A stretch of 9,150 bases of DNA, from the IMG/VR virus record IMGVR_UViG_2698536574_000022; one strand, written 5' to 3'. The position numbers and the translations under genes were made by a program. The notes beneath the pieces are model-generated. The model searched no databases. It was given only the letters and a program-made list of their open reading frames with translations, and was not told the origin of the DNA. The stretch is from a virus (taxonomy: Duplodnaviria > Heunggongvirae > Uroviricota > Caudoviricetes). Positions 3,075 to 8,062 of the stretch are shown here, piece by piece; position 1 is the first letter of the stretch; every line of letters begins with the position of its first letter.

Positions 3075-3656
3075 TTATCTTCTTTTCAGTTCCTTGGGAA
3101 GAAAAGCATCTATTTCTTCTTCAGAAAATGTTAAATCTTCTTTGTTTTTTAATGCGTCCTGTGCTTTTTTATAAGCTTCAAATGTTGTACTAGGAGAGCC
3201 TGAATACACTGAATGTAAACTCTCGAGTAACGAATCCCGCTCTGACTGCAATTGCTCGATTGGTTTTTCACCCATTGCTAAGTCTGTAAGCAATGATAAA
3301 TACTTTTCTCGGATTAACCAGATCTCATTTGCAGCCTGCTTATGTTTTTGCGCCAACTCACCAAGGTCATAATCTTTGGTATAAGCGTTAAGAATGAGAA
3401 GCAGTGTTGAAACAACAATCCCAACCCCCGTGCCTACTTCACCCGCGCCGAAAAAAGTTGCTAGAAAGCCTCCAGTAGTTAAGGCGGAGAGAATTATTTG
3501 CCAAAACTTTATAGAAGATAGTCGAGATAGGAGAATGTCTGAGCATTTTTCATGCGTCTTATGTGAGTAAACGACCCGACCATAACACTCTCTGATCTGC
3601 CCTTCTAAAACCCTTCTAGATTCAGGTGTATCCTTAGTCTGGAAATGTTGATCCAT
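3075..3656 (-). CDS. Two-transmembrane effector, SLATT-like (predicted pore-forming or membrane-disrupting partner of the nucleotidyltransferase)
   Basis: Track ORF 3075..3713; preferred start ATG 3656-3654 with GGGAGA about 4 nt upstream, giving MDQHFQTKDTPESRRVLEGQIRECYGRVVYSHKTHEKCSDILLSRLSSIKFWQIILSALTTGGFLATFFGAGEVGTGVGIVVSTLLLILNAYTKDYD... (193 aa). Layout is an N-terminal helix, two hydrophobic segments (WQIILSALTTGGFLATFF and GVGIVVSTLLLILNAY) and a roughly 95-aa helical charged C-terminal region. Overlaps the upstream gene by 23 nt (80 nt if ATG 3713 is used). Confidence 0.7.
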   Translation of the reverse strand: MDQHFQTKDTPESRRVLEGQIRECYGRVVYSHKTHEKCSDILLSRLSSIKFWQIILSALTTGGFLATFFGAGEVGTGVGIVVSTLLLILNAYTKDYDLGELAQKHKQAANEIWLIREKYLSLLTDLAMGEKPIEQLQSERDSLLESLHSVYSGSPSTTFEAYKKAQDALKNKEDLTFSEEEIDAFLPKELKRR

Positions 3657-4515
3657 AAATCTCCCGCCATTTTTGCTTAGCCGACCATTCGCGTTTTGGG
3701 GTCGCCATTTCATGCTCTATAGCTTCGAGTGAAATGTTATAGCACCGTTTTGCTTTATATTGGAAAAGCCCTTTACCATAGACATACTGACCACTTCCTG
3801 GCGCTTTCCAATACTCCTTACTCGTATCTTGATCAGCCATCCATTTGAAGAAATCACGACTCATGAAATCGTAGTAAAGATACGACTTATCTCTATGCGC
3901 CCAATTTTCAATGAATTGATACGCAAGCGTATCAATGAGTAAACCACTTATAGGTACATCCCATTTACGCTTCCAAGCTCTTGCCATTCTACAAAGTTGC
4001 ACCAAATTGTTATTGGTAATGTTATTTCTTAACCTCATTGCAGAAATTTCTGGCTTTGGATTTGTAATCCTCCAACGGCCACCACCGTTCGCATCAGGAA
4101 ATGTGTAACTATCACTAACATTGAGGAAAGCTGGAACGACTTCAAATGTAATTCCATCATTGAACGGTACAAGGATCACTTGACCGTCACCTCTAATACT
4201 AGTGGTAGCATAGGTTTTTTCAATAGATCTCTTAACCGCTTGAAGCAATGCTGACTGCCCATTTCCTAAGTAGCTATTGTATTTTTGATACTCGGAATAT
4301 GGTAGCTGAAAAATCATATCCAGATCGCTCAAGCCTTGCGTAGCTGTGTTCCGACCATATGATCCAACGTAGAGACTATGAGAAGTATCAGAACTGCTAT
4401 CCCAAAAATCCGTATTTAAACGCTTCGTTATATTCCTATATCTAGTTGAAATTGTTCCACCATCTTTTACAGTAAGATTGGAGCAAAATCCGCAAAACCA
4501 CTCAGCTAAACCCAT
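3634..4515 (-). CDS. CD-NTase / SMODS-family nucleotidyltransferase (cGAS/DncV-like; predicted cyclic nucleotide second-messenger synthase)
   Basis: Track ORF 3634..4521 starts at TTG; preferred start ATG 4515-4513 with AAGGA about 8 nt upstream. Translation MGLAEWFCGFCSNLTVKDGGTISTRYRNITKRL...YVGSYGRNTATQGLSDLDMIF...GQVILVPFNDGITFEVVPAF...RWRITNP... shows the Pol-beta-type GS-x11-DxD motif plus a downstream acidic residue in an h-h-F-D-G-hh-EVVP context. About 293 aa, typical of minimal CD-NTases. Assignment is by motif recognition, not a search. Confidence 0.8.
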   Translation of the reverse strand: MGLAEWFCGFCSNLTVKDGGTISTRYRNITKRLNTDFWDSSSDTSHSLYVGSYGRNTATQGLSDLDMIFQLPYSEYQKYNSYLGNGQSALLQAVKRSIEKTYATTSIRGDGQVILVPFNDGITFEVVPAFLNVSDSYTFPDANGGGRWRITNPKPEISAMRLRNNITNNNLVQLCRMARAWKRKWDVPISGLLIDTLAYQFIENWAHRDKSYLYYDFMSRDFFKWMADQDTSKEYWKAPGSGQYVYGKGLFQYKAKRCYNISLEAIEHEMATPKREWSAKQKWREIYGSTFPD

Positions 4516-4661
4516 GCTCAATTCCTTTTCTAAAATCTAATGAAAAATTCAAGGGCGCATGTTCCATGCATCATTGATAACTTTTTTCAGTCAGCTAGAG
4601 CAACATAATTGATACTAACTAGCTGTTTCTTCAAGTGAGTAACCTACTTTAGCATCAAGGT

Positions 4662-5049: not shown

Positions 5050-5508
5050 TCAATTTACATCTGAACTAATGCACTTTAATCTCGTCACTTCAAAAAAATA
5101 CCGAACATCCCCCTGATAAAACGACAATATCCGCTGCATAACTTCGCTTTTACGACACTCAGTACAAATTATATTATGACGCCTGTCGTAACGACGTATT
5201 TCTCCATCAGGTAATGACCAGATAAGGTCCGGATCAACCGCAGATGGTTTCTTCAGCTTTGCCCTTGAGAGCTTTTTACGGGCATTTTGCCAGTCCTTAC
5301 GCGCCTGTTCAGACGGGAATAACCCGTAACCAGAGTTGTATACATCGCCACTGGCAACCAGCTCTCTGGCCAGAACGCTCATCAGATATCTTGTTGCCCC
5401 AGTTTTAGCTTCCTGTTGTCGTAACGTCTCGCGCCCACTCTGGCGTACGAGTTCAAGAACCTGCCCTTTAATTTTTTCCCGCTCTTCTTGTGTAAAAACT
5501 TTTGCCAC
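5050..5508 (-). CDS. Hypothetical prophage protein (152 aa), distal gene of the replication-side operon
   Basis: Track ORF with GTG start at 5508-5506 preceded by consensus AGGAGG (rc of 5513-5518). Translation (M)AKVFTQEEREKIKGQVLELVRQSGRETLRQQ... No Walker motif (not a DnaC/P-type helicase loader) and no domain I can assign. Confidence 0.6.
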   Translation of the reverse strand: MAKVFTQEEREKIKGQVLELVRQSGRETLRQQEAKTGATRYLMSVLARELVASGDVYNSGYGLFPSEQARKDWQNARKKLSRAKLKKPSAVDPDLIWSLPDGEIRRYDRRHNIICTECRKSEVMQRILSFYQGDVRYFFEVTRLKCISSDVN

Positions 5509-5548
5509 AAGCCCTCCTGAAAATTACCTCATGACCAGAAATACACAC

Positions 5549-6136
5549 TTACCCCCTGAAGCCCGGTGGAATTTCGGTATCCGGTTCAGAAATATGATTC
5601 ACACAACGCTGGTTGTTCGTACCGCTTACCGGGAGCAACCAGGGGTTTTCAAAATTCCGGTCCGGTCCAAAAAACGTCGTCGCTCGCTGAACAAATTCCG
5701 TTCCCGTTTTCCCGGTAGCCGCCAGGTATCTTGCGTAACGCCTCACACCATCCAGCATGGCCTCTGGTGGCACCCCCTCGCGTAATCTGGCCTTCCAGGC
5801 ACTGAAAGCGGATTTCTTCGGGTTTGCCCCAGCACGCAACGGGTATTCCCGCCAGACCTGTTCGAACACATCCGGATAATCTACTCGCCCCACAGGCTGC
5901 CCGGTGTTTTCCGGGACTACCCGATCGGCTTCCCGCTGAATGGCGGAATCGGCTTCAGGCTGCTGCAGTTGGTGTGATTGCTCCGGCCTTGCGGTCATCA
6001 CCTGCTGCACAGCGCCCGAATCGGCTTTCAGCGCATACGCTGAATCGGCTTCCGGTGTCGTGCCTGCTGGCTGACCAGGATTGACGGTCTGAACATCCCC
6101 TGCCTGGTTCGTGGCGTTTTTTACGCCATGGACCAT
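5549..6136 (-). CDS. Replication-associated protein: low-complexity linker plus conserved C-terminal domain
   Basis: Track ORF 5549..6223 begins at TTG; first ATG is 6136-6134 (MVHGVKNATNQ...). Pro/Gln/Ala/Thr-rich linker, then DYPDVFEQVWREYPLRAGANPKKSAFSAWKARLREGVPPEAMLDGVRRYARYLAATGKTGTEFVQRATTFFGPDRNFENPWLLP, which I recognise as a phage replication-protein type of domain (memory, unverified). Its 5' end overlaps the upstream ORF in another frame, so it may be the C-terminal part of a frameshifted single initiator gene. Confidence 0.55.
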   Translation of the reverse strand: MVHGVKNATNQAGDVQTVNPGQPAGTTPEADSAYALKADSGAVQQVMTARPEQSHQLQQPEADSAIQREADRVVPENTGQPVGRVDYPDVFEQVWREYPLRAGANPKKSAFSAWKARLREGVPPEAMLDGVRRYARYLAATGKTGTEFVQRATTFFGPDRNFENPWLLPVSGTNNQRCVNHISEPDTEIPPGFRG

Positions 6137-6609
6137 AGTGTTTTGATCTTCTTGATCTGTATCTTTATCTGTATCTTTATCTGTCGTGACATGTGCGTGA
6201 CATTTCGTGACGCGCCGTGACAATCGCCATTTTGTTCCCGCTTTCTTTCCCTCTCTCGCTGCGCCCTCTTGCGCTCTGCAGGAGATTTTGCGGTTTGCGA
6301 AATATTGCCGTTGTCCTCTTTAAGCACCTGGCGTTTTTCCCATCCAGTGATTAAATCACCATCAAGTACCCGCCCCTGCATCGTCTGCAAAATTGAATCA
6401 ATTACCTCTTCTGTCACGTCGAGCGCACTTGCCAAATCTTCTGTCGTGACATCAATGTGACCTCGCGTGACATTTCGTGACGCGCTCACCAGGAGGTGGA
6501 TATACACTGCCATCACTGTTGCAATTGGCTGCCCTGACACCCTGGCAATTGTTCGCCACTTAGGGTCATTTGGCATGTCATGCCATAATCTGAGCCAAGC
6601 GTTAGCCAT
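6121..6609 (-). CDS. Replication initiator / replisome-organizer N-terminal domain protein (lambda O-like role); contains the iteron arrays
   Basis: Track ORF 6121..6615 starts at GTG; preferred ATG 6609-6607 with GAGGTG 3-4 nt upstream. N-terminus MANAWLRLWHDMPNDPKWRTIARVSGQPIATVMAVYIHLLVSAS resembles phage replisome-organizer N-terminal domains. The gene body contains two arrays of four phased GTGAC repeats, as the lambda O gene contains ori. Confidence 0.65.
   Translation of the reverse strand: MANAWLRLWHDMPNDPKWRTIARVSGQPIATVMAVYIHLLVSASRNVTRGHIDVTTEDLASALDVTEEVIDSILQTMQGRVLDGDLITGWEKRQVLKEDNGNISQTAKSPAERKRAQRERERKREQNGDCHGASRNVTHMSRQIKIQIKIQIKKIKTLWSMA
6155..6184. repeat. Tandem 12-bp repeat (ATCTGTATCTTT x 2.5) in an AT-rich stretch with two GATC sites
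   Basis: Direct reading: ATCTGTATCTTT at 6155-6166 and 6167-6178, then partial ATCTGT; GATC at 6145-6148 and 6154-6157. Encodes IKIQIKIQIK in one minus frame and TDKDTDKDTD in the overlapping frame. Confidence 0.8.
6186..6221. repeat. Iteron-like array A: four GTGAC motifs at 10-11 bp phasing
   Basis: GTGAC at 6186, 6197, 6207 and 6217, immediately adjacent to the AT-rich tandem repeat. The block CTGTCGTGACAT...GCGTGACATTTCGTGACGCGC (6181-6215) is duplicated at 6441-6485. Confidence 0.6.
6446..6481. repeat. Iteron-like array B: four GTGAC motifs at 10-11 bp phasing
   Basis: GTGAC at 6446, 6457, 6467 and 6477, plus an inverted copy (GTCAC) at 6414-6418. A near-duplicate of array A lying about 260 bp away inside the same gene. 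Confidence 0.6.
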
Positions 6610-6680
6610 ACTCACCTCTTCTGATACCGAATCTTTTTACTCACGAGTTGCCGGAAGCGATTCGATATGGCTATTGTCAG

Positions 6681-7106
6681 TCAATGTACTGCCACAGCAT
6701 TTCCTGCCGGGCCACCACGGTTCATCTGATTGAAACCGGCGATTGCCACTGCGACAAAATCATCAGCGTCTCTCACCAGTCGCTCCCGCGTCTCCACCAG
6801 CTCCCGAAAATAAGCTGAACTGTGGCTGCGCATTCTGGCCACCAGCAAAGGTGGCCTTGCCTTTTCGATCGCTGGTAACAACGCCTGAATTTTTTCAACT
6901 GCATCAGGGGTATCTTTCTCTATCCAGCGGAAAATTTTCTGGGTATTGCGAGCCAGGGCTTCCGGATGGCTGTCGTCGTACAGTTCAGGAAACGTCATAC
7001 CCAACTCAAAATAAGCCTGGGTTATTCCAGCTGCCGGAACTTTTTCGCCATCAGGACGCGCCCAGGCATTCATCGCCATGCGGATGTGTTCATGCTTGAT
7101 TTTCAT
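6681..7106 (-). CDS. YdaT/CII-like prophage regulator (141 aa)
   Basis: Track ORF 6681..7178; preferred start ATG 7106-7104 (MKIKHEHIRMAMNAWARPDGEK...) preceded by GGGGGG 5 nt upstream. It sits immediately after the Cro-like gene, in the cII position. Family name is from memory. Confidence 0.55.
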   Translation of the reverse strand: MKIKHEHIRMAMNAWARPDGEKVPAAGITQAYFELGMTFPELYDDSHPEALARNTQKIFRWIEKDTPDAVEKIQALLPAIEKARPPLLVARMRSHSSAYFRELVETRERLVRDADDFVAVAIAGFNQMNRGGPAGNAVAVH

Positions 7107-7332
7107 GAATCCCCCCTTGGTTAGAAGGCGGATTATGATCAGAACCGGGAATGACAACCGTCGGTATGTGTAACTCATATTTGAGCGCCCCGGCAGTGAC
7201 TGCCTGAATTAGCAACGCCCATTTCCACGGAACCTCTTCCCCCCACATGCTGACTGTGGTTTTTGACGTTCCTAGAGCTGCGGCTGTTTTAACAACTCCG
7301 CCAAAATAGCCTAATACTTCTGATTTTTTCAT
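7090..7332 (-). CDS. Cro-like HTH regulator (YdaS-like)
   Basis: Track ORF 7090..7380 starts at TTG; preferred ATG 7332-7330 with GGAG 7 nt upstream. MKKSEVLGYFGGVVKTAAALGTSKTTVSMWGEEVPWKWALLIQAVTAGALKY... has an HTH and is divergent from the CI-like gene across an operator-containing intergenic region. Confidence 0.7.
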   Translation of the reverse strand: MKKSEVLGYFGGVVKTAAALGTSKTTVSMWGEEVPWKWALLIQAVTAGALKYELHIPTVVIPGSDHNPPSNQGGIHENQA

Positions 7333-7360
7333 GAGTCGCTCCATAAAACTGAACGCCAAA

Positions 7361-7424
7361 AGTTTAATAATCAAAACCAAAGAAAGTCAAGAAACAAAAC
7401 CATCTGTGTTTTAAAATCAAAACA
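7361..7424. promoter_or_regulatory. oR-like divergent control region: operator palindromes and back-to-back promoters
   Basis: Palindrome TGTTTT-AAAATC-AAAACA at 7407-7424 overlapping the CI-like ATG; degenerate copy AGTTTA-ATAATC-AAAACC at 7361-7378. Minus strand: -35 TTGACT (rc of 7385-7390), 18-nt spacer, -10 TAAACT (rc of 7361-7366) aimed at the Cro-like gene. Plus strand: -10 TAAAAT at 7412-7417 ends 6 nt before the CI-like ATG with no SD, consistent with a leaderless transcript. Confidence 0.55.
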
Positions 7425-8062
7425 TGAGCAAGCAAACAATATCTGAACGCATAACCCAACGTATGCATGCGCTAAACCTGAAAGGCAAAGACCTTGTCAA
7501 TGCCACTGGCGCATCAAAAGGCTCCGTAAGTCAATGGATGAACGGTGGAGGAGCGCCGTCCTCGCGTTACATAAGTTCACTGGCAAAAATATTGAAAGTA
7601 AACGAAAATTGGCTTCTTAATGGAGGAGAGTTAAATACAGGTGATTCGCTTGATCTATCTTTACCGCCGATAAAAACGGTTCCGCTACTATCACTTCAGC
7701 AGGCAGCAAGCTGGAGTGATTATATGAAAAATTCCTCAATAACCTCTTGTGTGCAGCTTGTCGGAGAAATCCCGGCCAATACCTTTGCAGTTGTTCTAGA
7801 GAGTGACAGTATGTCAACATCTGGTGGGGGAGTTTCCATCCCAAATGGTTCAACAGTTTTTGTTGATCCCAATCGAACCGTACAACCAGGAAATATTGTC
7901 CTTGCCTTACCCAAAGGGACCACAACACCTGTCATTCGTAAACTGGAGATAGAAGGGCCGGATATTCTTTTAGTCCCCACGAATCCTCGCTACCCTTCAA
8001 TTATGCTGGATGATCTATCTTGCATATTGGGCGTATGCTTTAAAATTCAACAAGATATTTAA
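7424..8062 (+). CDS. CI-like phage repressor: N-terminal XRE-type HTH plus C-terminal S24 (LexA-like) autopeptidase domain
   Basis: Track ORF, 212 aa. HTH region LKGKDLVNATGASKGSVSQWMNGGGAPSS...NENWLLNGG; C-terminal domain with Ser in AVVLESDSMSTSGGG and Lys in VIRKLEIEG, with the conserved spacing of LexA/cI Ser-Lys dyad proteins. Confidence 0.9.
   Translation: MSKQTISERITQRMHALNLKGKDLVNATGASKGSVSQWMNGGGAPSSRYISSLAKILKVNENWLLNGGELNTGDSLDLSLPPIKTVPLLSLQQAASWSDYMKNSSITSCVQLVGEIPANTFAVVLESDSMSTSGGGVSIPNGSTVFVDPNRTVQPGNIVLALPKGTTTPVIRKLEIEGPDILLVPTNPRYPSIMLDDLSCILGVCFKIQQDI

Follow-up and report, generated by a model that had tools for sequence, protein, structure and literature searches.

The DNA analysed here, referred to below as the window, is a 9,150-nucleotide stretch of the Caudoviricetes virus record IMG/VR IMGVR_UViG_2698536574_000022, and the subject of this analysis is a minus-strand replication initiator gene within it whose coding sequence holds two arrays of short phased repeats (iterons) and an AT-rich tract. 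A sequence-only reading had called this arrangement origin-like, an analogue of the lambda origin inside gene O with a different iteron sequence, and comparison across the gene's family supports that view: the window probably contains the theta-type origin of a lambdoid Escherichia coli prophage, embedded in the gene of its own initiator. The features of the gene, with coordinates in nucleotides (nt) of the window and open reading frames abbreviated as ORFs, are these:

5549..6609, minus strand: replication initiator gene of the phage 'replisome organizer' type, frameshifted; a single 356-amino-acid ORF in relatives.
6121-6609, minus strand: N-terminal ORF, 162 amino acids from its ATG.
5549-6185/6223, minus strand: C-terminal reading frame, overlapping the N-terminal ORF.
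6440..6485, minus strand: array B, four phased iterons, with GTGAC on the plus strand at 6446, 6457, 6467, and 6477.
6413..6417, plus strand: one copy of the iteron core in inverted orientation, about 31 nt past array B in coding sense, encoding residues 64-66.
6183..6224, minus strand: array A, four phased iterons, with GTGAC on the plus strand at 6186, 6197, 6207, and 6217.
6136..6185, minus strand: AT-rich, purine/pyrimidine-skewed tract, a proposed DNA-unwinding element, in coding sense (GATAAAGATACA)n then GATCAAGAAGATCAAAAC.
6105..6135, no strand assigned: inverted repeat TGGTTCGTGGCG-TTTTTTA-CGCCATGGACCA, 13 pairs with G-T allowed, on the far side of the AT-rich tract.

Both arrays are built from the same non-palindromic 6-bp core, GTCACG in coding sense, recurring with a period of 10-11 bp, and the steps between successive copies are 11, 10, and 10 in array A and array B alike, which bears out the earlier description of two four-copy GTGAC arrays at this spacing. 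Eight of the ten plus-strand copies of GTGAC in the window fall in the two arrays. In 500 first-order Markov simulations of the window, no 5-mer ever appeared in four phased copies (steps of 9-12 bp); the real window has three such four-copy chains, all inside arrays A and B. The duplicated block of about 35 bp that the arrays had been said to share is a 42-nt block with 74% identity when aligned in register (6180-6221 against 6440-6481), and shifting the arrays by one unit reveals 21 identical nucleotides, GCGTGACATTTCGTGACGCGC, at 6195-6215 and 6465-6485. Array B lies about 260 bp upstream of array A and about 130 nt into the gene, within the coding sequence of the DNA-binding domain. Array A abuts the AT-rich tract, where, as had also been noted, a 12-bp tandem repeat accompanies two GATC sites: the repeat is TCTTTATCTGTA (12 bp x 2.9, 6150-6184) and the sites are at 6145-6148 and 6154-6157. 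GC content reaches a low of 0.33 at 6120-6179 and is 28-33% across the tract itself, which includes the least stable 40 bp of the gene. DnaA boxes (TTWTNCACA with at most one mismatch) gave 15 matches in the window against 20 expected and none in 6100-6230, and scans of 5400-7500 for sigma-70 promoters and terminators returned chance levels; a 'promoter' scored at 6197-6224 is merely the iterons.

The initiator matches the PHROG family phrog_3729, 'replication initiation protein', at E 5.5e-258, and its relatives at 96-99.5% identity have one intact 356-amino-acid ORF. About 1,600 related genomes, and likewise the plaque-forming phage Tritos, have the gene as a single ORF of this length. The 6121-6609 ORF, whose product the sequence-only reading had named, is just the N-terminal fragment of the frameshifted 5549-6609 gene; likewise array A does have four units in the window, but it has five in relatives. 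In the alignment, precisely one 10-bp unit of array A, GTCGTGACTC, is missing from the window while all intact relatives have it, and the deletion point falls within the repeated GTCGTGAC at 6183-6190; a deletion between two adjacent GTCGTGAC repeats is a signature of slippage. Loss of this unit shifts the frame and leaves the two overlapping ORFs, 6121-6609 and 5549-6223, with the frameshift after residue 143, where it parts the DNA-binding domain from the predicted helicase-recruiting domain. The initiator gene being broken, the origin in the window cannot fire without an intact initiator supplied in trans. Among 81 close relatives, 74 have five copies in array A, in four a point change has damaged one unit but left the ORF intact, and the 10-bp deletion occurs in none; the exact junction of the window is shared by 4 of about 2035 complete E. 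coli genomes that have the region. One of these carriers, NZ_CP147032, is flagged 'frameshifted' by the Prokaryotic Genome Annotation Pipeline (PGAP) and belongs to a prophage riddled with the insertion sequence IS1. Many database entries for the initiator are marked 'partial' and belong to contigs whose ends fall within the gene or close to it, and one cluster of 52 sequences (P0034) has the length of the window's 164-amino-acid ORF.

To place the gene in its family we scanned one genome per species, which gave 80 loci, and analysed 77 loci in all. Most of the 77 have two phased arrays, at about nt 130-165 and nt 345-450 of the gene, and these gene positions of the two arrays are shared across Proteobacteria and some other phyla. 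The core is clade-dependent (GTCACG, CGAACG, GCAACG, GTGACG, or GTAACG), and the two arrays change together: among loci with at least three exact phased copies in each array, arrays A and B belong to the same motif class in 35 of 36, compared with a mean of 11.6 and a maximum of 23 when the array classes were paired at random in 10,000 trials. The exception, a Pseudomonadota metagenome-assembled genome (L070), has its array A motif twice in array B as well. Its array B (in nt 110-170) consists of three CGAACG followed by two GTGACGC and its array A (in nt 350-385) of three GTGACGC, and this locus may be an intermediate in a switch of specificity. Phased direct repeats that covary with the cognate initiator, as expected of an iteron origin, were thus found in five motif classes, and the covariation of the arrays with the N-terminal domain suggests that the initiator binds them. 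The inverted core copy that follows array B is found at a fixed 31-33 nt past it in 14 of 22 GTCACG-class loci and in 2 of 4 GCAACG-class loci, against a background rate of 0.07 per 50 nt; being restricted to certain classes, it is not a general feature of the family.

The arrays also stay with the N-terminal domain when the rest of the protein is exchanged. In Pseudomonas phages, a domain with about 70% identity to residues 1-138 carries an unrelated C-terminal domain, with a primase-helicase gene next in order, and these initiator genes retain both arrays at the same positions together with GATAAAGATACAGA. In Ralstonia phage Firinga, where the N-terminal domain has 38% identity and a DnaB-like helicase comes after it, both arrays again occupy the same positions, with GCAACG in place of GTCACG. 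Conversely, PhiR5_2, which has the same C-terminal domain and a different N-terminal domain, has no such arrays. Tritos offers a view of the module in an intact phage: in its 46-kb genome, arrays A and B are the sole clusters of at least three GTCAC within 45 bp, and it encodes no helicase, loader, primase, or other replication gene besides the initiator. As Tritos forms plaques on MG1655 (PMC9928086), the module appears to be functional in intact relatives. The family comprises 2,241 clusters at 50% identity and includes 26 phage records, none of them a model phage, and about 2,000 of 5,426 complete E. coli genomes carry it.

The number of repeat units varies within limits set by the reading frame. 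An Escherichia albertii locus has six units in array B (gene nt 129-181), a gain of 21 bp that is in frame, and the length of the AT-rich tract in close relatives ranges from 18 to 60 nt, invariably in multiples of 6; both point to a coding constraint on changes in repeat number. Array B has 6-8 units at two Pseudomonas loci, and each array B expansion lengthens the encoded loop. Elsewhere, some N-terminal homologues (L054, L071, L082, L055, and L009) are fused to other sequences, for example GIY-YIG-like or HNH-like ones, and have neither array; two of them, L054 and L071, have palindromic CTACGTAG repeats instead.

The AT-rich tract is as general as the arrays. In 57 of 59 homologous loci it comes after array A, the 40 nt beyond the array averaging 21 GC points less than the gene, and it consists of (GATAAA)n, (GATACA)n, or (GAGAAG)n independently of iteron class. 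Even genes of 60-67% GC have an AT-rich tract with A/T-ending codons. Aspartate is encoded by GAT in 95% of cases within the tract and in 44% in the rest of the same genes, a difference that persists in genes of at least 57% GC (91% against 35%; Fisher p=1e-13), and AAA codons are likewise enriched. This codon bias indicates that the tract is selected for its A/T content or sequence and is more than a charged linker. The GATC sites are no family-wide feature of the tract. In widely separated lineages (for example L014, L019, L028, L032, L053, and L068), AGATCTAAA recurs at the hexamer tract's distal end, and the GATC sites may accordingly belong to a conserved tract end rather than being Dam/SeqA targets. 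The inverted repeat at 6105-6135 is kept in PhiR5_2, with which only the C-terminal module is in common, and so belongs to that module; family-wide, there is a modest enrichment of short GC-rich inverted repeats 30-60 nt past the last iteron (mean stem 6.1 versus 5.3, p=0.003). The junction at which N- and C-terminal modules are exchanged lies near residue 158, directly after the AT-rich tract, and the O gene of PhiR5_2 has a purine hexamer repeat, (GAACAG)4, at the same interdomain junction (nt 465-500). Several initiator types may thus share hexamer repeats as linkers or as unwinding elements.

The protein itself is less easily placed. Neither the 356-amino-acid protein nor the two fragments in the window matched any Pfam family at E<=0.01, Phage_rep_O included. 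The N-terminal domain aligns collinearly with Phage_rep_org_N (PF09681) over positions 1-119 of 121 at E 0.008 and 16.6 bits (cut-off 23.3) and matches TIGR01714 at E 0.016 and 15.4 bits (cut-off 49.8); PHROG replisome-organizer families match at E 5.5e-6 and 2e-4, and PGAP names the relatives 'phage replisome organizer'. A remote relationship of the N-terminal domain to the SPP1 replisome organizer G38P is plausible on these alignments. The AlphaFold2 model of residues 1-136 (mean predicted local distance difference test score, pLDDT, 76.6) has helices at 3-14, 16-25, 29-45, 56-63, and 67-77 and a hairpin at 78-87, followed by a disordered basic stretch and then a long helix at 110-130, and the modelled topology resembles a winged helix. 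At the other end of the protein, the last 24 residues (5549-5620) resemble the C-terminus of DnaT (NF002770 at E 0.0015; PDB 6aep, 2ru8, and 9zbt), and relatives are annotated with a DnaT-like single-stranded DNA-binding domain; single-sequence and profile searches of the PDB matched only this DnaT-like tail and left the N-terminal domain unmatched. The tail, in a type of phage that has no helicase or loader gene after the initiator, suggests that the host helicase is recruited by mimicry of DnaT. In PhiR5_2, which has the same C-terminal domain, a dnaC-like gene is present.

By analogy with the origins of lambda and SPP1, these observations suggest the following mechanism. The N-terminal domain of the initiator would bind the 6-bp core GTCACG once per helical turn of 10-11 bp, on one face of the helix. 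Array A, with five units where the phage is intact, is situated in the gene's interdomain part and abuts the (GATAAA/GATACA)n tract, the likely unwinding element, which would melt once array A is bound, and the C-terminal domain with its DnaT-like tail would then recruit the host DnaB/DnaC. Array B, with its four units and one inverted copy, would offer the same protein a second cluster of binding sites and would most likely be the accessory half of a bipartite origin that acts through looping or nucleoprotein assembly, and possibly also an autoregulatory roadblock that limits transcription of the initiator gene. In the window, slippage between adjacent GTCGTGAC units has removed one 10-bp iteron, and the origin is degraded.

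The placement of array B raises a further idea, that the protein loop it encodes is what reads the iteron, with the binding site and its reader in the same nucleotides. Array B encodes residues 43-57, which in the AlphaFold2 model are the end of a helix and a surface loop at 46-55, rich in Arg, Asn, His, and Thr; indels of the domain concentrate in the 46-55 loop, whose sequence varies with iteron class. Columns that separate GTCACG-class from CGAACG-class proteins occur only in residues 42-56, 65-67, and 101-114, and outside the loop the identity between the classes (0.62) equals that within the CGAACG class. We consider this idea rather unlikely. If it were true, one change in array B would alter the site and the recognition loop together, which would equip the family with an inherent path to new origin specificities or incompatibility groups, array A then being brought into line by gene conversion. 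A related and similarly unlikely possibility is that frameshifted copies such as the one in the window, expressing a bare DNA-binding domain, block the replication of incoming phages of the same iteron class.

Several points weigh against the origin interpretation or limit it. The covariation counts loci and not independent events, of which only about four or five switches are evident. Array B is absent from L045, L063, L068, and L078, and the arrays are degenerate in L035, L037, and L051; L045 has seven units in array A, and the existence of members with array A and without array B indicates that array B is accessory rather than essential. Within a class the array B peptide varies very little, and some of the conservation there could accordingly be at the protein level. 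The homology of the N-terminal domain to the replisome-organizer family lies under the curated thresholds, and a Foldseek search of its AlphaFold2 model against the PDB found nothing significant, the top matches being generic winged-helix regulators at E>0.2. In the literature we searched there is no paper on this family or on its binding, unwinding, or origin firing, and the Eru paper makes no mention of repeats or origins (PMC8044961).

The simplest alternative is that the repeats only reflect a repeated peptide motif under selection in the protein, a scenario that the sequence-only reading had itself raised. The peptides ASRNVT...VTT(E/D) do occur at both places in the protein, and ASRNVTRGH is nearly invariant within the GTCACG class. 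However, the copies start at nt 129, 139, 149, and 160 (array B) and at 389, 399, 409, 420, and 430 (five-unit array A) of the gene, so that successive copies with their 10-11 bp period occupy all three frames, encode no repeated peptide, and leave the peptide without periodicity. Third codon positions in array B match the consensus at 0.78 compared with 0.55 elsewhere (p=0.003; 22 GTCACG-class species), and a peak of synonymous conservation coincides with the array. Across clades the DNA motif switches in both arrays together, and the peptides that the two arrays encode are not the same. A mere peptide repeat, which we regard as extremely unlikely, is thus excluded by frame usage and by conservation at synonymous sites. 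No more credible is the idea that the 10-bp repeats are a slippage-prone contingency switch of the initiator gene. The allele in the window is an exact loss of one unit with a frameshift, and truncated proteins of about 164 amino acids exist in databases, as such a switch would predict, but the frameshifted junction is confined to the four complete genomes given above and absent from the 81 close relatives, one of its carriers is a decaying, IS1-riddled prophage, and the variation that is tolerated (the 21-bp gain in E. albertii and the tract lengths in multiples of 6) keeps the frame. Given the rarity of the allele, we reject this idea.

Two other explanations accept the arrays as binding sites and differ from ours in what they are for or what binds them. 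That they are initiator-binding operators serving autoregulation or copy control alone, for example through a roadblock or handcuffing, while the origin lies elsewhere, is distinctly improbable to us, though less so than the others weighed here. A protein bound at array B, about 130 nt into the gene, could block elongation, and plasmid iteron clusters with purely negative roles exist, such as incA of P1. An operator would have no need of a neighbouring AT-rich tract, and yet array A is coupled to a tract selected at the DNA level in 57 of 59 loci; moreover, the Tritos genome has no further iteron cluster, and the origins of lambda and SPP1 lie at the same position (PMC7466680, PMC6316719). It is very unlikely that the arrays bind some other protein, be it a host factor or a regulator encoded next to the initiator, such as Cro or a YdaT/CII-like or DUF977 protein. 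The neighbouring genes and the C-terminal domains differ completely among E. coli, Pseudomonas, and Ralstonia members, and the arrays track the N-terminal domain alone; motif classes vary within a single host genus, and this speaks against a conserved host factor; DnaA boxes are not in excess.

An origin inside the initiator gene is a known kind of arrangement. In lambda, the origin occupies the middle of O and comprises four 18-bp iterons along with a 38-bp AT-rich tract (PMC7466680, PMC3349717). As in lambda and the Stx phages, the origin proposed here lies inside the initiator gene, between the parts that encode the DNA-binding N-terminal and the partner-binding C-terminal domain; as in lambda, an AT-rich tract comes after a direct array of iterons along the direction of transcription (PMC7466680, PMC3349717), the specificity for iterons goes with the N-terminal module, and the iterons constrain the linker that they encode. 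In contrast to lambda, the initiator is no homologue of O, the iterons have a 6-bp, non-palindromic core with a period of 10-11 bp rather than being palindromes of 18-19 bp with spacers between them, a second array lies within the region encoding the DNA-binding domain, the AT-rich tract is a hexamer repeat, (GATAAA)n, and there is no P-type loader gene, the C-terminus being DnaT-like instead.

SPP1 provides a second comparison: its oriL combines direct repeats with an AT-rich unwinding element inside gene 38 and is bound by G38P (PMC6316719). Direct repeats beside an AT-rich element in the initiator's own gene are common to both systems, binding being predicted in ours from the sequence comparisons, and the two separate regions bound by one protein in SPP1 (oriL and oriR) would have their counterpart in arrays A and B (PMC6316719); the N-terminal domain is, in addition, weakly and collinearly matched to Phage_rep_org_N. 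Unlike the SPP1 regions, which are about 13 kb apart, arrays A and B lie about 260 bp apart in one gene, and Tritos has no distant second cluster. The hosts here are also Gram-negative, the helicase-recruiting module is another one, and there is no G39P-like loader.

Two separated clusters of the same short initiator-binding repeat that cooperate or regulate are known from satellite phage P4 (ori and crr) and from the iteron plasmids P1 (incC and incA) and F. Their initiators are unrelated to this family, and their clusters are mostly intergenic, kilobases apart (P4) or flanking rep, rather than embedded in the initiator gene. According to the literature searched, what is new here is the candidate origin of this family, the second array within the sequence of the DNA-binding domain, the family-wide hexamer tract, and the covarying iteron classes.

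By sequence identity, the source element is a Tritos-like, Qin/DicB-type lambdoid prophage of E. coli: Qin/DicB-type prophages match the window at 99.5% identity and phages Tritos, Evi, and vB_EcoS-640R1 at 96-97%. The genes that flank the initiator are these:

7424-8062, divergent from the minus-strand genes: CI-like repressor gene.
7090-7380, minus strand: Cro-like gene, 5' of the YdaT/CII-like gene in minus-strand order.
6681-7178, minus strand: YdaT/CII-like gene, between the Cro-like gene and the initiator.
5050-5508, minus strand: DUF977/Ren-like gene, after the initiator in gene order.

Between the replication module and hokD lies a two-gene defence cassette of the cyclic oligonucleotide-based antiphage signaling system (CBASS) type (3075-4521, minus strand), which consists of an oligonucleotide cyclase (SMODS) at 3634-4521 (PADLOC Cyclase, E 5e-144) and a 2TM/SLATT effector at 3075-3713 (E 1e-84). 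By correspondence with the annotation of NZ_CP027355, 1359-1571 (minus strand), 170-1281, and 2535-2934 are the toxin gene hokD, the frameshifted remnant of an IS421 transposase, and a fragment of a recombinase, which together mark the window as part of a decaying prophage.

These results give a concrete candidate origin to a large family of initiators from phages and prophages that seems not to have been studied. The covarying iteron specificities of the family, of which there are at least five, form a natural series on how a small domain reads a 6-bp site, and they could help to predict replication incompatibility or cross-activation among co-resident prophages. The 10-bp indel is a simple marker that distinguishes replication-competent from defective copies of the prophage module. 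Array B within the sequence of the DNA-binding domain is an unusual overlap of protein and DNA codes, and the constraint of the reading frame on iteron number shows how such an overlap can shape the evolution of an origin and also put an end to the replication of a prophage.

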